64,000 nucleotides of DNA from Eledone cirrhosa. Its lineage: Eukaryota. This document shows positions 1,012 to 55,756 of the stretch, one piece after another. Positions within the stretch are counted from its first letter, which is position 1, and the number at the start of each line of letters is the position of its first letter. The DNA is taken from the NCBI GenBank assembly GCA_964016885.1, contig OZ024763.1, positions 8,122,001 through 8,186,000 of the forward strand, written 5' to 3'. Under the pieces are notes generated by a model, which ran no database searches, was not told the DNA's origin, and saw only the letters and a list, made by a program, of their open reading frames with translations. Made by a program: the position numbers and the translations under genes.

Positions 1012-1050
<39 letters not shown>

Positions 1051-1336
1051 AAAATGTTCAAGACCCCGACGGCAGAGCTCAAGCCGTTTCGACGGCTATT
1101 CTGGACTAGAAATAGTCAGGGTTTTAACTCTTTTCCTATTACCCACTCTACTACTCCAAGTATTGAGTACTCTGGTGCGTTATGGTCCACCTGGTTCCTT
1201 ACCACACTTCCTTCGTTATATATATGTGTGTGTGTGCCCCGGGTTCAATCAGAGGTACCACAGTAAGGTACTCAATACATTAGTAGAGTGTAAACACCAT
1301 GTTTAATTTAGAACAAAAGAAATCATCAGGAAAGCC

Positions 1337-1386
1337 GCTTCCTGATGATTTCTTTCGGATGAAACAAGTTCTAGTCCTGTAGAAGC
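1337..1386 (+). ncRNA. Type I hammerhead ribozyme-like motif (family A, copy 1)
   Basis: GCTTC-CTGATGA-T[TTC tttc GGA]T-GAAA-CA...TG-TA^-GAAGC. Stem I GCTTC/GAAGC, intact CUGAUGA and GAAA, GUA triplet. Confidence 0.65.
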
Positions 1387-1663
1387 CATTTCTATATTAA
1401 ATCTGATATATATATATATATAGTGTTCCCAAAAAATGTATACACACTTCAGCATTCTAATAAATATTGCCTGTACAGGTGATCAAAGTGTGTAAACATT
1501 TTTAGGGACACCCTGTATATCTATCTATATATATACCCAAATAAAGAAAGATATATATATATATACACACACACACAATATATATATATATATATATATA
1601 GTTAGTTTATACATATATAATACATAGCTAATTAATATATATATAAATATATATATATATATA

Positions 1664-3170: not shown

Positions 3171-3353
3171 ATAGGAAAATGTTTAACCCCGACGGCAGAG
3201 CTCAAGCCGTTTCGACGGCTATTTCTGGACTGTTTCTGGCATCCAGAAATAGCCGTCGGGGTTAAACATTTTCCTATTACCCACTCTACTACCGTAAGTA
3301 TTGAGTACTCTGATGCGTTATGGTCCACCTGGTTCCTTACCGCACCTCCTTCG

Positions 3354-7458: not shown

Positions 7459-7804
7459 TTACCGCTTGTACTTGTCATACCTCTCGTAGGAAGGGCTTCG
7501 GTGGTTTCTATGTTTCTTGTACTGCTTGTTGTCGGGGCTGTGATTATAATGATACTGGTCCCTCTCTCGATAGTATTTCTTGTGACCAGGACGTCGGTGT
7601 TCCGGCGACTGACTAAACGACCGACTGCGGCTTCTCGAGTGTGACCGCCGCTTGTTACGCTTGTGTGTGTGCTTCTCTTTCTGGACGTAGCAACGCTCAG
7701 GAGAGTACTTGTCCTTGCTACGATATTTACGTGGTGGGGTTCGATATCTTTTGTTCTTATTAGCGGGAGATCGACTGTGGCTGTGGCTGAATGACCTCTC
7801 AGAT
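7459..7804 (-). CDS. CCNL1: Cyclin L last coding exon (RS domain)
   Basis: tatttccag|A SERSFSHSHSRSP...RRSHSRSRSRSFSQSPEHRR...YDKYKR*. Arg/Ser-rich C-terminus characteristic of cyclin L. Confidence 0.92.
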
Positions 7805-8019
7805 CTGGAAATAAACATATATATAAAATAAAGGAAACAAGCACAATTTAAAATATTTTGGTTGTAAATTCAAATTTAACCCTTTAGCATTTACAGTACT
7901 CCATATTTACTATTTTGTTTTTGTGGTGATGGCTTTACCTCAAATTATGTTCTAAACACCCCAGAGAAAGTTAGTTTCTTTTACTAGAAATATGTAATGA
8001 ATGAGTTAACTGAACTTAA

Positions 8020-34923: not shown

Positions 34924-35650
34924 GGAAATTATTTATGAAACATGGAATAAGTGATGGAAAGATCGAGTATGTTAAAGTTGAGATATATATATATATATAT
35001 TTAGATATAAATCAAGATAAAAGAGTGAATAAATAGACAAGAAAAATGAACAATCAAGACAGACATGAGAGGAAAATTTACATCATGTGAGAGATGGTTT
35101 GAGACAGGAATATGTGATGGAAATACAGGAAAATATTTATGAAAGACGATAAAATAAATCTAGAAAGATCGTGTATATTAAAGAAGAGACATCTAGATAT
35201 GTTTTTATATATAAATCAAGGTAATAAATTCAGTAAATAGACAAGAAAAAATGGAATCAAGACATGAGAGATGAGAGGAAACATATCATGTGTGTGTGAA
35301 GGAGTATTTATGGAGAGGAATATGTGATGGAAAGGCGGTAAAATAAATCTAGAAAGATCATCTATGTTAAAGAAGAGAAATCTTGATATATTTTTATATA
35401 TCAATCAAGATCATAGATTCAGTAAATATACAAGAAAAAGTGGAATCAAGACATGAGAGGAAATATATAATCATGTGTGTGTGAAGGAGTATTTATGGAG
35501 GAATATGTGATGGAAATACGGTAAAATAAATCTAGAAAGATCGTGTATGTTAAAGAAGAGACATCTAGAGATATTTTTATATATAAATCAAGGTAATAAA
35601 TTAAATAAATAGACAAGAAAATGGGCAATCAAGACAGGAAAGATGAGAGA
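34540..35650. repeat. Degenerate tandem repeat of about 185 bp
   Basis: AATAAATCTAGAAAGATCGTGTATGTTAAAGAAGAGACATCTAGA blocks recur about 5 times. Confidence 0.7.
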
Positions 35651-35673
35651 AAAATGTTTGAGAGAGAAAAATC

Positions 35674-35683
35674 CAAAATGGCG
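35674..35683 (+). promoter_or_regulatory. YY1-type motif just inside cyclin L intron 1
   Basis: CAAAATGGCG matches AANATGGCG, about 12 nt into intron 1, in otherwise CpG-poor DNA. Confidence 0.4.
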
Positions 35684-35695
35684 TCGGCCACCTAC

Positions 35696-35905
35696 CTGAG
35701 GTAACTTCAACAAGATACCAGCAGTCTGAATCATTTCACAGCCGATTATACGTAAATCTATTTCTACTTCATAAGCTAAACCATCTTGCATTGATGGAGT
35801 TGGTGACAATCTTTCTGGTGGTAATAATATATTTTCTAAAGTAATCACTACTTTGCTAAAAGTACGATGAGAAGAAGAAGACTCGACCTGTTTGTTCTCC
35901 GACAT
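35696..35905 (-). CDS. CCNL1: Cyclin L (CCNL1/CCNL2 orthologue), coding exon 1
   Basis: ATG at 35905. MSENKQ...LENILLPPERLSPTPSMQDGLAYEVEIDLRIIGCEMIQTAGILLKLPQ matches the cyclin L N-terminal cyclin box. Donor CAG|gtagg, 210 nt, phase 0. Confidence 0.95.
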
Positions 35906-37935
35906 TTTGACTAGGAGCTTACAGTGTCGTCTCTTTCTGGAATTACTTACTCACTCTTACTCTTTCTACACTTACTCATGATTCTATTACTCTTTCTAGT
36001 GCTACTGACACTATTACTCATTCACTCACTTTCTGACATTTACTCTTTCACTCACTTACTCTCCCACTCCCTTGCTTATTCACTTAATCTCCCTCTTACT
36101 CATTCACTCACTTATTCTCCCCTCCCTTGTTTATTCACTTAACCTCCCTCTTATTCTCCCCCACCCTTGCTTACGTAGTTAATCTTTCTCTCTCCCTCCC
36201 TTGCTTATTTAGTTAATCTTTCTATCCCTCCCTTCGTTTTACTAACTCTTACTTTTCCTCTTCCTCTCACTTAATCACACCCTTACTGACGCTCTAACTT
36301 TTTCACTCATTTATCCTCTGTTACTGACTCTTATTCTTTCACCCCTCCCTTGCTTATTGACCTAATCTCCCTTTTACTCTTTCGTGTTACTGACTCTTAC
36401 ACTTTCACTTAATTACTCTCTGCCCCTCTCTTGCTTATATACTTAATTTCTCTCTTACTGATTCTTACACTTTCACTCACTACTCTCTCTCTCTCTCCTC
36501 CCTTACTAACTCTCAAGCCTCTTTCTATACTCTCAATACAACTTATAACAATTTAATATATTCCTCCGCCGTTTTTAATATATACAATTATAATGTAACA
36601 TTCATTTGTTCAACATTCTTTCTCTCGCCCCCCCCCCCACATAAATATATATGCGTTATATGAAACAATTGTCTTACTGGCGTATATTAAAAAAATGTCT
36701 CCAGGTTAAATTACTTTATGGTATCGGACTGAAACATTCATTCAATTTGTTTAATTTACAATTCATTGCAAAAAAAAAAAACAGACGTTTAGGTAACATT
36801 TTTATTTCGTTATTGTTTTTGTTTATATAATATTTAAAAGATCGGACAGGGAGAAAAAAATAATGGGATTTTTTTTCTCACTGCGGAGGAAAAACGTAAT
36901 TAAGAAGAGATGTGTGACCATGTGGCTGATGAGTGAAAGAAAGAGAAAGGAGGAGGGGAAAGACTGAAGTAGTAGTAATAGTGGTAGTAATCGTAGTAGT
37001 AGTTGTAGTGAGAGGGAAATGAACATTTATAGAAAGACTAATGAAGTAGATATAGTGGTAGTGTGAGTGAAAAGAAGGGGAGGTGAGAAAAATACCGGAA
37101 GTAGTAGTGGTCGTAGTAACAGTGTTGGTAGTGTGAGGTGGAAAAGAAGGGGAGGAGAAAACGTAGAAAGATTGAAGAGGTAGTAGCTATAGTAGAGGTG
37201 GTGATGTGAGGGAAAAGAAACATTTATAGAAAGACTAAAGAGGTAGCAGCTATAGTAGTGGTGTGAGGGAAAAGAAGATGAGGTAATGATAGCAACGGAA
37301 GTAGTAGTAATTGTAGTGGTAGTAGCTATAGTAGTGTGAGGGAAAAAGAAAGGGAGATAAGGAACAGAAAAAGTAGTAGTAGTGGTGGTGGTAGTAGCTG
37401 CGAGGGGGGGGGGGGGGGATATAAGGGGAGGTAAGGCAAGGAACAAAACGGAAAATGTAGTAGTGGAGATAGTAGCTATAATGGTGGTGTGAGGGGGAAA
37501 TAAGGGGAGGTAATGCAGGGAAAGGAAGATTGATAATGATATTAGTAGTAGAAGAATGGTGAAAGATTTGAATTACAAACAATAATTGTGATGCTGCTTG
37601 CTCTGGTCTAACTAACATGGTGTGTGTGTGTGAGCCTGTCACTGCCACGTTGCTTATTCCACACAGTTCGGCTACAGCTTAGCCAAAATTCCATGTCTAG
37701 CAACAACAACTACTTACTGACAGAATAAAAAAAAACTACCAGCACAGTACTCGCCTTATTGTCTCTTCATAATAACTGTAGCTGCTCCTCTTAACGAAAC
37801 TTTATATATATATATATACATATATATATACATGATAAATTTGTACACACATTGATATATGTATATATCTAGATATATATATTAACTGGCTACATAAATT
37901 TATATACATATATTGATATATATATATATATATAT

Positions 37936-37990
37936 TGATGATTTCTAAAGAATGAAACAGTTCTAGTCCTGTAGAATCTCATCTATATTA
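37936..37990 (+). repeat. 5'-truncated family A hammerhead copy within (TA)n
   Basis: TGATGA-T[TTC taaa GAA]T-GAAACAGttctagtcCTGTAGAATCTC. C3 and the 5' arm of stem I are replaced by microsatellite. Confidence 0.6.
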
Positions 37991-38695
37991 TATATTTATA
38001 TATTGATATATATATATATATATATATATTAATATATATATATATCAATATATGTATTGATATATATATACATATATATATATATTAACTGGGTGCACAT
38101 ATAATATATATATATATATATATAAATTATTATTTACATATATATGTATATCTATTATATGTGTATGTGAATTAAAATAATATATATTGACCGGGTACAT
38201 ATACATATATCTCTCTATGTATATATATGGTTGTGTACTGTATGTATATGTACCCACTTAATATACCTGCTTAGAAACCGTTCTCGCGATATATAACAAC
38301 ACAAAACAACCACCACAACTTCGACCGGGACAATCACAAACACACACAGCAACATCTAACTAATATCTGTGTCGTCATCGCTGTCTCATACACGCACACA
38401 CACCCATATATATATACATAGACACCCATATATATATTATACACACACACACCCTAAATGTATATATATATATAAATCTGTGAAATCATACACAAACGCT
38501 AACATGTTGCTAACTAAACTACATGGCATTATAATGACTAAGAAAGCTCTAGTGTACCTAACAACCAGAGATAACAACAACCACCCCCACCACAACATTA
38601 AAGACCACACTGACCAGAGCACAACAGCCCTTCAAGGCTGGTCGTGGTGGTGGCCGTCGGGGTCGGGTTTTTCGGCTCACAGGACCAACAGTAGT

Positions 38696-38952
38696 ATGAC
38701 AACGAGCATGTTGTTGGTCCTCGTTCTGGTGACCAGTTGGTGCTTGTCCAGCTGCCAGGTTACAGCCAAATCTTTCAACGTGGACACTGTAGACAACCTA
38801 GCCGTGCCCGACCACTTGGAAGGTGTGAAAATGGAACAAGACGGTCATTTAAACCAGAGATTCCGACAAGAGGTTTTTATGGGAGATCTGGAAGATTTGG
38901 ACGAGATGTCTTACGAAGATCGTCGAGCAAAACTTGATGAAGTTTTCAAGAA
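38696..38952 (+). CDS. SDF4: 45 kDa calcium-binding protein Cab45 (SDF4), first coding exon
   Basis: Signal-peptide-like [20 protein letters not shown] followed by [26 protein letters not shown], the Cab45 N-terminal signature. Donor AA|gtatgt. Start codon uncertain (another in-frame ATG at 38504). Confidence 0.9.
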
Positions 38953-39129
38953 GTATGTTGTTGTTATTTTTATTGTTCTTATTGTTGTTTTAACTCCCAT
39001 GACAGAGTTTGACCATCCAATGTTATATTATCTAAATATATTCTGGGCTTTAGTAACCCATAATGACAGGGCTCCCAAACTTTCGGGTAGTTTTTTGGTT
39101 TTGTTTTGTTGTATCGAGACCCCTCTAGC

Positions 39130-39430
39130 CAGGGCCGGATTTAATGGAGGGTAATTGCCTAGGGTCCCCTCTGCAGTGGGAGGGGGGGGCACCAGCGACG
39201 GCCGTAGCAATTTATTTATGCCCTCATCGGGCTTTTTAGTTTTAGGATAGGTTAGAATTTTTAAATTTAACACCTGTATGTATAATTTTCAATTTCAATT
39301 ACTTGCACCAAGCTAACTTTGATATGTAAAATGGCAGGGGGGGGGGGGGGCTATTTATTCTAATTTTTTGTGTATGAGGGGCTTCCCCCAAACCTGAATT
39401 GCCCCCCCCCCCGGTCTAAATCCAGCCCTG
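39130..39430. mobile_element. hAT-like MITE
   Basis: Termini CAGGGCCGGATTTA / TAAATCCAGCCCTG. Related partial copy at about 6166-6380. No clear TSD. Confidence 0.55.
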
Positions 39431-47095: not shown

Positions 47096-47520
47096 ATGGA
47101 GGTTTTAAAGGATGCAGTCTCCCGACAGCTAACAACTGATGCAGGTAGTTTGTTCCATGGAGGTTTTAAAGGAAACAGTGTCCCGACAGCTAATAACTGA
47201 TGCAGGTAGTTTGTTCCATGGAGGTTTTAAAGGATGCAGTATCCCGACAGCTAACAACTGATGCAGGTAGTTTGTTCCATGGAGGTTTTAAAAGATGCAG
47301 TGTCTCGACAGCTAACAACTGATGCAGGTAGTTTGTTCCATGGAGGTTTTAAAGGATGCAGTGTCCCAACAGCTAACAACTGATGCAGGTAGTTTGTTCC
47401 ATGGAGGTTTTAAAAGATGCAGTGTCTCGACAGCTAACAACTGATGCAGGGAGTTTGTTCCATGGAGGTTTTAAAGGATGCAGTGTCCCAACAGCTAACA
47501 ACTGATGCAGGGAGTTTGTT
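47096..47520. repeat. 61-bp tandem repeat x7 (CR1-derived)
   Basis: ATGGAGGTTTTAAAGGATGCAGTGTCCCGACAGCTAACAACTGATGCAGGTAGTTTGTTCC. Confidence 0.9.
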
Positions 47521-47662
47521 TCATACTTCAACAACTCTGAACGTGAAAAAATGTTTCCGAAAGTGATGGGAGCTGTGCTGTTTTCTGACTTTGTAGGCAT
47601 GTCCATGTGTGTTAATACCAGTAATTATAGAAGGCCTATTCTTATTGTTTCTATTTTCTCAG

Positions 47663-47821
47663 ACAGAGCCGTCCTGTTGAGGTACCAGAACCGTTGGTTC
47701 GACGCCGACGAAGAGACTCAGGATAATAAACTGACGAAGCAGGAATTCCTCAAGTTCCGACATCCAGAACATCGGGATGACTCCATGCAAGAAATGGCAG
47801 AGAGCATCCTCAATAGCCTTG
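47663..47821 (+). CDS. SDF4: Cab45 coding exon 4
   Basis: ttttctcag|(D)RAVLLRYQNRWFDADEETQDNKLTKQEFLKFRHPEHRDDSMQEMAESILNSL G|gtaacg, 159 nt, CREC-family FxHPE motif. Confidence 0.93.
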
Positions 47822-47872
47822 GTAACGATCTCCTCCCTCAATAGCCTTCGTAACTAACTCCTTGTCCCTTAA

Positions 47873-51925: not shown

Positions 51926-52650
51926 CACTAAGTTTCAGGATATAAATGACCACTAAGTTTCAGGATATAAAACAGACAATGGGGGAGCGAGGCCAGAACC
52001 AGTTTTAGGCAGTTTGAGGCAGTTTAGTATCTAAAAGGTTAAGAAACTGAAAAAAACAATCTGTTGAGAGTGAGTTGTGATGATGATGTGTGTTGTGATG
52101 ATGTCTATTGTCAATCAAAACAGTCAGATGACACGTGGTCTGTGTCTTCCTCTACTCTCTCAGTAACAATGGTTACAGTTCCTTTATATGGTCATTTCCT
52201 GAGCTGGAAAGAAGGCCAAGACTGCTGCTTGGGAAACTTGCAACAACATCCTGTTATGTCAGAAAATATTTATGGAGAATTGTCTATCTTGTATCTGTAT
52301 ATATATATATATATATATAATGTATGTATGTGAGACAGAGAGAAAGAGAAGTATCTCTCTCCATATATGTGTGTGTGTGTGAAAGAGAAGTACCCCACCC
52401 CTCTCTATAATATATATATGTAGGTGCCATGGAAAAAAAGCACCCAGCACTCACTGTAAATGAGGTTGGTGTTAGGAAGGGCATCCAGCTGTAGAAATCA
52501 AGTCCGAATCAGTTCCTGTATGAGCAAGACATGGTCAGCCGACTGGACACTGCTCACAACAGGACAACCCGTCTAACCCATGCTAGCATGGAAGAACGGA
52601 CGTAAAACGATGATGATGATATATATATATATATATTTAATATAGAAAAG

Positions 52651-52697
52651 CTTCTACAATACTAGAACTGTTTCATTCGGGAGAAATCATCAGGAAG
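52651..52697 (-). ncRNA. Type I hammerhead ribozyme-like motif (family A, copy 3)
   Basis: Minus strand CTTC-CTGATGA-T[TTC tccc GAA]T-GAAACAG ttctagta TTGTA^GAAG. Confidence 0.62.
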
Positions 52698-52833
52698 GTG
52701 ACTGTCCAAGTAATCTATATTAAATATTTATACTCTATGTATTGAGTCCCTTACTTACTGTGGTTACCCCCCCCCCCCCCGATGAACCCGGGGATAAATT
52801 TATATATATATATATATGTGTTTAGAAGTAGCC

Positions 52834-55685
<2,852 letters not shown>

Positions 55686-55703
55686 AATAGTTTTAATATA
55701 GAT

Positions 55704-55756
55704 GAGATTCTACAGGACTAGCACTGTTTCATTCATTAGAAATCATCAGGAATCCC
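55704..55756 (-). ncRNA. Type I hammerhead ribozyme-like motif (family A, copy 4, best formed)
   Basis: Minus strand GGGATTC-CTGATGA-T[TTC taat GAA]T-GAAACAG tgctagtc CTGTA^GAATCTC. 7-bp stem I, 4-bp stem III. Confidence 0.68.

Follow-up and report, generated by a model that had tools for sequence, protein, structure and literature searches.

Dispersed hammerhead motifs in the genome of Eledone cirrhosa as probable ends of a young Penelope-like element

The hammerhead-like motifs scattered over a 64,000-nt stretch of the Eledone cirrhosa genome (hereafter the window; contig C24, positions 8122001-8186000, within a 3.0-Gb genome) are almost certainly the ends, or pseudo-LTRs (pLTRs), of a Penelope-like element (PLE). 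The element itself is a very young autonomous PLE with many intact open reading frames (ORFs). Its short insertions are likely made when the reverse transcriptase (RT) copies an uncut RNA whose start is likely base 1 of the hammerhead, a joint mechanism to which we assign a probability of roughly 0.65 on the basis of copy boundaries. The element class is already known, and the worth of the present family is its base-sharp ends. The origin of inverted pLTRs and tails in PLEs and the role of the hammerhead are named as open questions in the cited parts of two papers (PMC8557442, PMC11167929), and a young family with many intact ORFs and tens of thousands of base-sharp copies makes inversion and tail formation testable. 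The directly testable predictions are the RNA start (-6), two RT starts (+22 and +91 past the predicted cleavage site) and the rule of one short and one long arm.

Results and discussion

Hammerhead copies in the window

A reading of the window made from the sequence alone had listed five hammerhead-like motifs, and all five were recovered. Those at 1337-1386 (+), 55704-55756 (-) and 52651-52697 (-) are complete according to a generic type I descriptor, which gave a mean of 0.14 and a maximum of 2 hits in 100 block shuffles of the window compared with the 3 real ones. The motif at 55756-55800 (+), which had also been counted as complete, lacks most of the 5' strand of stem I. A sixth arm, internally deleted, at about 1238-1336 (-) was absent from that list.

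The motifs belong to arms that mostly lie head to head. In an insertion of the young subfamily, the long arm (55755..55885, +) begins 1 nt before C3 of the hammerhead, includes the tail, ends at +91 past the predicted cleavage site and is followed by (TA)n, and the short inverted arm (55689..55754, -) carries a complete hammerhead with GAUUC/GAAUC in stem I and ends at +22 in (TA)n. The corresponding insertion of an older subfamily (GCUUC/GAAGC; locus L001) has a short arm at 1337..1402 (+), with a complete core, a 1-nt insertion in stem III and an end in (TA)n, and a long inverted arm at 1238..1336 (-) composed of the 5' half of the hammerhead, an internal deletion and then the tail. A short arm of the subfamily with loop UCCC (52635..52712, -), which has a complete core and about 20 nt of upstream pLTR, adjoins a long arm truncated 3' of the hammerhead (52713..52792, +; tail only). 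A solo short arm (37936..37990, +), correctly described before as truncated, starts at U4 inside (TA)n, so that C3 and the 5' strand of stem I are missing. The flanking tail noted earlier is present, but it lies 3' of the hammerhead on the oppositely oriented arm and had been given as its reverse complement; in the full-length element this 'tail' is the 5' leader downstream of the hammerhead. No hammerhead family of Rfam was matched in the window or on one full-length copy, and the window holds no ORF fragment of the parent element's family.

Genome-wide abundance and ribozyme fold

An exact 34-nt core pattern, searched genome-wide, gave 20,008 matches (11,049 and 8,959 on the two strands) against 0 for the reversed control, the strand excess coming mostly from one tandem array. 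All parts of the type I core are present (C3 U4 G5 A6 N G8 A9, G12 A13 A14, A15.1-U16.1 and H17), together with three stems of 6 bp (stem I), 3 bp plus a U-U (stem II) and 4 bp (stem III). We collected 327 distinct arms with an anchor pattern that tolerated 7 substitutions and left loop II unconstrained. The core is nearly invariant across them, and loop II, whose free variation had already been pointed out, is the sole highly variable part. The expectation that the core is better conserved than the loops held for loop II, which is far more variable, but not for the 8-nt loop III, which is as conserved as the core. Positions 10.1-11.1 are not canonically paired (U-U, in 319 and 326 of the 327 arms), in agreement with the earlier description. 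The U-U pair was ruled out as a novelty, because it is the same in Hydra-clade hammerheads and other natural hammerheads: U10.1-U11.1 is known from natural hammerheads (PMC3088659, in the section cited), and in the cited part of the supplement of Craig et al. many Hydra-clade hammerheads share a ctgatgat...tgaa core with U-U (PMC8557442).

Covariation between copies is real in stem I and found nowhere else. Among the 194 of 327 arms with intact flanks, the pair -4/+4 of stem I is A:U in 157 and C:G in 17, the cross-combinations occurring 1 and 0 times. In an 18-row alignment, the rows of which are related, 93.6% of the cells pair and both-side changes are confined to stem I; stem II shows zero variation and stem III one-sided changes only. 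The covariation in stem I is a single event at the subfamily level, not many.

The monomer is marginal in the hammerhead fold (-5.3 kcal/mol), and monomer folding is no better than that of shuffles, with z-scores near 0. A self-duplex of stem/loop III reaches -12.8 kcal/mol versus -1.4 kcal/mol for the hairpin, which agrees with the dimer model described for PLE hammerheads in the cited part of PMC4209133. Core and stems support the assignment of the motifs to type I hammerhead ribozymes, with catalysis as a prediction.

The parent element and its protein

An ORF search of the genome returned 89,191 candidates, 103 of which were scored, at 96-100% identity. Among these 103 we examined all 13 copies with an open frame of 758/759 aa, plus three others. 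The hammerhead stands 40 nt before the open frame in 13/13 of the former, so that the linkage to a Penelope RT/GIY-YIG ORF elsewhere in the genome that the sequence-only reading had envisaged is found in every full-length copy; in the three others it stands 57 nt before the frame in one and is absent in two. A second forward hammerhead follows 4.5-6.3 kb downstream in 11 of the 13 copies. Translation from the ATG, which stands 137 nt downstream of the predicted cleavage site, gives proteins of 713-714 aa that are 96-99.7% identical in the 13 copies. The full-length unit accordingly reads TATA box, hammerhead, 137-nt leader, 713-aa RT/GIY-YIG ORF, 3' region, and a second TATA box with hammerhead. 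The earlier identification as a type I hammerhead in a PLE pseudo-LTR stands, since the motif is directly upstream of intact RT/GIY-YIG ORFs, whereas the non-autonomous family or retrozyme proposed along with it does not.

The 3' region is 1.7-3.4 kb long (examples are L114:2971-4678 and L157:5511-8158, with mixed (TA)n/(TG)n), and 51-69% of it is TA/TG repeat in 7/7 copies measured, compared with 10% for the window. Because it holds kilobases of (TA/TG) repeat, the element likely spreads its own target. Starting at non-inverted copies and moving upstream, we reached locus L114, which contains an inverted pLTR, a 5'-truncated ORF, the repeat-rich 3' region, a hammerhead, a partial tandem pLTR and the tail. 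The anatomy of EN+ PLEs is found here with pLTRs, partial tandems, an inverted 5'-truncated copy, a tail and a hammerhead in the pLTR. At L114 and L157, each long insertion brings 1-2 kb of its own target repeat.

The protein is a single ORF with YRDD and IVY...YIG motifs, that is, a telomerase-like RT followed by a C-terminal GIY-YIG domain. Its predicted structure has a pLDDT of 93, and the top seven fold matches are telomerase RTs. In the Pfam and PDB sequence searches the RT was not recognised, and Pfam reported GIY-YIG below the cut-off only. A PLE ORF in L113 was considered as the parent and rejected, because it belongs to another family and lies inside the 3' region. Beside or inside copies at L087, L090, L093, L107, L108 and L113 we also saw RTE-type LINE ORFs, integrase ORFs and several further PLE families, among them related Hydra-like ORFs.

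Relation to the Hydra clade

Judged by sequence motifs rather than by an RT tree, the element appears to fit the Hydra clade of C-terminal EN+ PLEs. In the cited part of Craig et al. 2021 (PMC8557442), this clade is defined by RWK, DKT, a CxCX5C linker, CxxC and CxH around E and N, and no CCHH. The protein has RWR, DKT, CNCLNKETC (the CxCX5C linker), CDLC (CxxC) and CMH (CxH), and CCHH is absent. Among the 120 homologues listed, RW[K/R] is found in 115, DKT in 103, CxCx4-6C in 115 and the C-terminal CxH in 111, and CxxC between GIY and YIG in 0. A single short ORF and a preference for (TA)n, with 3' ends adjoining TA repeats in most sampled arms, are further likenesses to the clade as it is described there, as are the type I hammerhead with a U-U beside the core, the inverted truncated copy and the tail.

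Several features set it apart. Two strings from the present hammerhead are absent from the supplement of Craig et al. as far as it was covered, and the hammerhead is distinct from all of those listed there, Hydra-1_Obim included. Unlike typical Hydra elements in the same source, the family has an 8-nt loop III, a tail of ~70 nt, where 30-40 nt is typical, and ~20,000 motifs together with intact young ORFs. Described Hydra elements are generally <3 kb, which is a descriptive trait, whereas the unit here measures 4.5-6.3 kb owing to its repeat-filled 3' region. By these comparisons we regard it as a new family within a known element class (hammerhead-bearing PLE), and by its hammerhead it is not Hydra-1_Obim; the family may already be catalogued, e.g. 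in Repbase or Dfam.

The 5' edge of the copies

The first 100 pattern matches on contig C1 gave 98 arms, 64 of them of the young subfamily. While 21 of these 64 continue upstream through the TATA box TATAAATA, 42 of the 43 that remain have their start 0-8 nt upstream of C3, with a peak at 5-6, and 34 of the 43 have an inverted partner. Over the whole genome, the start is exactly -6 in 2,065 arms (the preceding base being other than C) and -9 in 98, 64 of which belong to one array, and 5,106 arms pass -10. Stem I begins at position -6, 30 nt downstream of the TATA box. This spacing is kept at 29-30 nt in four subfamilies whose spacers differ; one copy that continues upstream (L067) is an exception with shorter spacing.

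An RNA starting at -6 would account for this edge, but the edge is also where stem I pairing ends, a position that hairpin-induced termination predicts as well. The same element could then produce its short copies by a structural stop, at which the finished cDNA 3' end folds back via stem I, comes off the RNA and then primes itself or is joined to a partner. Such a stop fits the observation that the edge is the end of stem I in each subfamily; moreover, the junction L222 is purely a stem I fold-back, several others carry 2-3 extra matching bases, and self-priming has been proposed for inverted junctions of rotifer Penelope elements (PMC3846280, in the passage cited). It leaves the fixed TATA spacing unexplained, however, and most partners are whole independent arms with a 3' end of their own, while the 5,106 arms mentioned above read through the edge. 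The base preceding the edge bears on the question as well. By hand tally, G stands in place of the element's C in 79 of the first 100 matches listed for the young subfamily and in 71 of the first 100 for the UCCC subfamily, and a structural stop predicts A or T before GGCTTC in the latter subfamily. We therefore consider a structural stop unlikely.

Untemplated G has been attributed to copying of the cap in L1 and SVA (PMC4859970, in the part cited). In the young subfamily the partner arm or a stem I fold-back could supply the extra G in most of 20 junctions; in the UCCC subfamily, 5 of 23 loci inspected have a G that is templated by nothing nearby. The extra G is thus ambiguous and only suggestive as a trace of cap copying.

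Few insertions start at the predicted cleavage site. We counted 78 arms starting there versus 54 at a control position, a bare enrichment without a clear pile-up in a count that misses copies with junction base A, as in (TA)n. A tail-anchored set of 65 arms was read by eye, as the automatic walk of the 5' extent cannot be relied on where indels or different subfamilies are involved; starts inside the hammerhead were seen there in about 8 of some 52 young arms. The scarcity of starts at the cleavage site suggests that the templates are mostly uncleaved. In the model of Cervera and de la Pena, by comparison, tandem transcripts would be cut by the hammerhead into monomers, which would then form circles; partial tandems would result from priming inside the circle, and short copies would be abortive. 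A religated junction would appear uncleaved in DNA, and the model is in line with the covariation in stem I and with the conservation of core and loop III across subfamilies while loop II drifts. But most short arms stop at the 5' edge of stem I, a place where a circle would have no end, and in the cited part of PMC11167929 hammerhead mutants of the Anolis element PAc still insert in vitro. We regard a circular template as improbable.

The 3' ends and the pairing of arms

Two classes of 3' ends, near +15/+22 and near +91 past the predicted cleavage site, were found in the 64 young arms, 39 of which end at +13 to +22 and 18 at +88 to +94. The inverted pairs combine them unequally: 58 of 63 are long+short, 5 are short+short and 0 are long+long, in a set that takes in tail-anchored loci, which would favour long arms. 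In contigs of four public runs, which represent at most two samples and possibly the assembly's own, loose ends were found at the same three places.

One could suppose that the ~190-bp palindrome is a separate non-autonomous master, similar to a retrozyme or a MITE, that is copied as a unit, and many near-identical copies with one junction are indeed among the top matches to the window copy. That junction was part of the query, however. In an unbiased list, 14 of the 16 pairs listed have cores separated by a variable gap of 4 to 17 nt, the junction letters differ, and either arm can be the long one. A single palindromic master is largely refuted by this diversity of junctions, and we consider it highly improbable. 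Since gaps and letters differ from copy to copy, palindromes and short copies form anew from the autonomous element at each insertion.

Proposed mechanism

In the mechanism that we favour, RNA polymerase II would start at stem I, ~30 nt downstream of the TATA box, and the protein would nick both strands of a (TA)n target. Two cDNAs would be primed at two internal sites, on opposite strands, and each would run off the 5' end of the RNA after ~67 or 136 nt. Joined end to end by microhomology, they would give the head-to-head pairs of a short and a long arm, and longer copies would come from the downstream pLTR of a read-through RNA. The hammerhead would cut rarely, only as a dimer or with the help of the protein, and cut RNA would seldom be the template. 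The spread of starts over 0-8 nt speaks against this mechanism.

The two classes of 3' ends and the short+long pairing agree with in vitro results on PAc, a Poseidon element of Anolis (Frangieh et al. 2024, PMC11167929), which in the cited sections nicks both strands of AT-rich DNA, has two internal RT starts that define the tail, and uses uncleaved RNA. PAc further resembles the present element in the hammerhead at the pLTR-ORF junction, the two 3' ends downstream of it, the AT-rich targets and insertions that span the uncleaved site. The two differ in clade, and the PAc ORF starts inside the hammerhead, whereas here the ATG lies well beyond the cleavage site. Neither a 5' run-off at stem I nor a short+long pairing of inverted arms is described in those sections of the PAc study.

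A more specific version is tentative and, in our estimate, slightly less probable than its negation. Capped PLE transcripts would start at hammerhead base 1, a protein dimer would prime two cDNAs resembling strong-stop products on both strands of a (TA)n break, these would run off at the cap and join head to head, and one such insertion would have seeded a 377-kb array. If true, this version would account for why the pLTR is inverted, why only one side has a tail and why animal genomes hold so many solo hammerheads; the hammerhead would be a 5'-end switch able to decap its own mRNA. In the open literature searched, no paper was found to combine Penelope, hammerhead, TATA and transcription start site, and 'strong-stop' is absent from the papers on Penelope-like elements or hammerheads that were listed.

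Tandem arrays of the hammerhead

The element also gave rise to a very large hammerhead satellite. On contig C28, from about 30,496,750 to 30,873,650, a ~377-kb array consists of 78-bp units, each a bare hammerhead with a short linker (L281, L283-L287). Each of four internal 9.9-kb samples was fully dense, with 124-127 units, and the ends were captured in two further samples; if continuous, the array has about 4,800 units. It starts with a normal inverted long PLE arm and derives from one head-to-head PLE insertion. Under the capped-start version above, it would be a retrozyme-like satellite that still bears the scar of its birth from a PLE. Joints going back by 77/78 nt are present in public contig sets.

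The units average 92.5% identity, and the core is intact in 386 of 514. We detected no selection on the core in this array (core versus loops, p=0.21). Although the array resembles a rolling-circle product, as a circular template would predict, its core is conserved no better than its loops, which makes expansion at the DNA level the simpler reading.

Non-LTR retrozymes (Cervera and de la Pena 2020, PMC7229834; Li et al. 2026, bioRxiv 10.64898/2026.07.22.740005; both for the parts cited) likewise have type I hammerheads, and the C28 array is likewise made of tandem hammerhead units, here derived from a PLE pLTR. The retrozyme form, with tandem complete hammerheads and no ORF, was matched in form only by this array, as the window copies, unlike retrozymes, are dispersed, inverted and tied to an ORF-bearing element rather than tandem. 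The cited part of Li et al. reports units of 51-972 bp and 300 units in the largest array. The 78-bp unit falls within that range, whereas the number of units, if the array is continuous, is far above that maximum, and the core shows no sign of selection. We found no paper combining hammerhead, satellite DNA, tandem and octopus, and a recent Octopus repeat annotation does not mention 'ribozyme' or 'hammerhead'. A second kind of array was seen on contig C1 at 83.68 Mb (L288), with tandem pLTR units of ~1.07-1.11 kb, a hammerhead in each and 8 units in 9.9 kb.

Neighbouring sequence in the window

A second dispersed element lies in TA tracts of the window at ~1050-1220 (-) and near 3297, 41234 and 57688, and often adjoins hammerhead copies. 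It has an internal palindrome and a short motif in common with the tail, and similar sequence flanks the other PLE ORF in L113. The solo copy at 37936 is located between two sets of exon-like frames, 35588-35950 (-) and 7459-7869 (-) on one side and 38360-39154 (+) and 47506-47844 (+) on the other; Pfam gave no match on these frames. The minus-strand frames, with their RS-rich end, may be cyclin-L-like, and the plus-strand frames may encode a secreted EF-hand calcium-binding protein. A U6 snRNA copy at 59626-59729 (-) scores 86 bits in Rfam, above the gathering score. Its 5' hairpin is damaged and a clean U-tail is missing; it is probably a pseudogene or retrocopy. Between two of the hammerhead insertions, at 52800-55650, extends a ~2.9-kb degenerate (TA)n minisatellite with a period of 21-29 bp and a short inverted repeat at its flanks.
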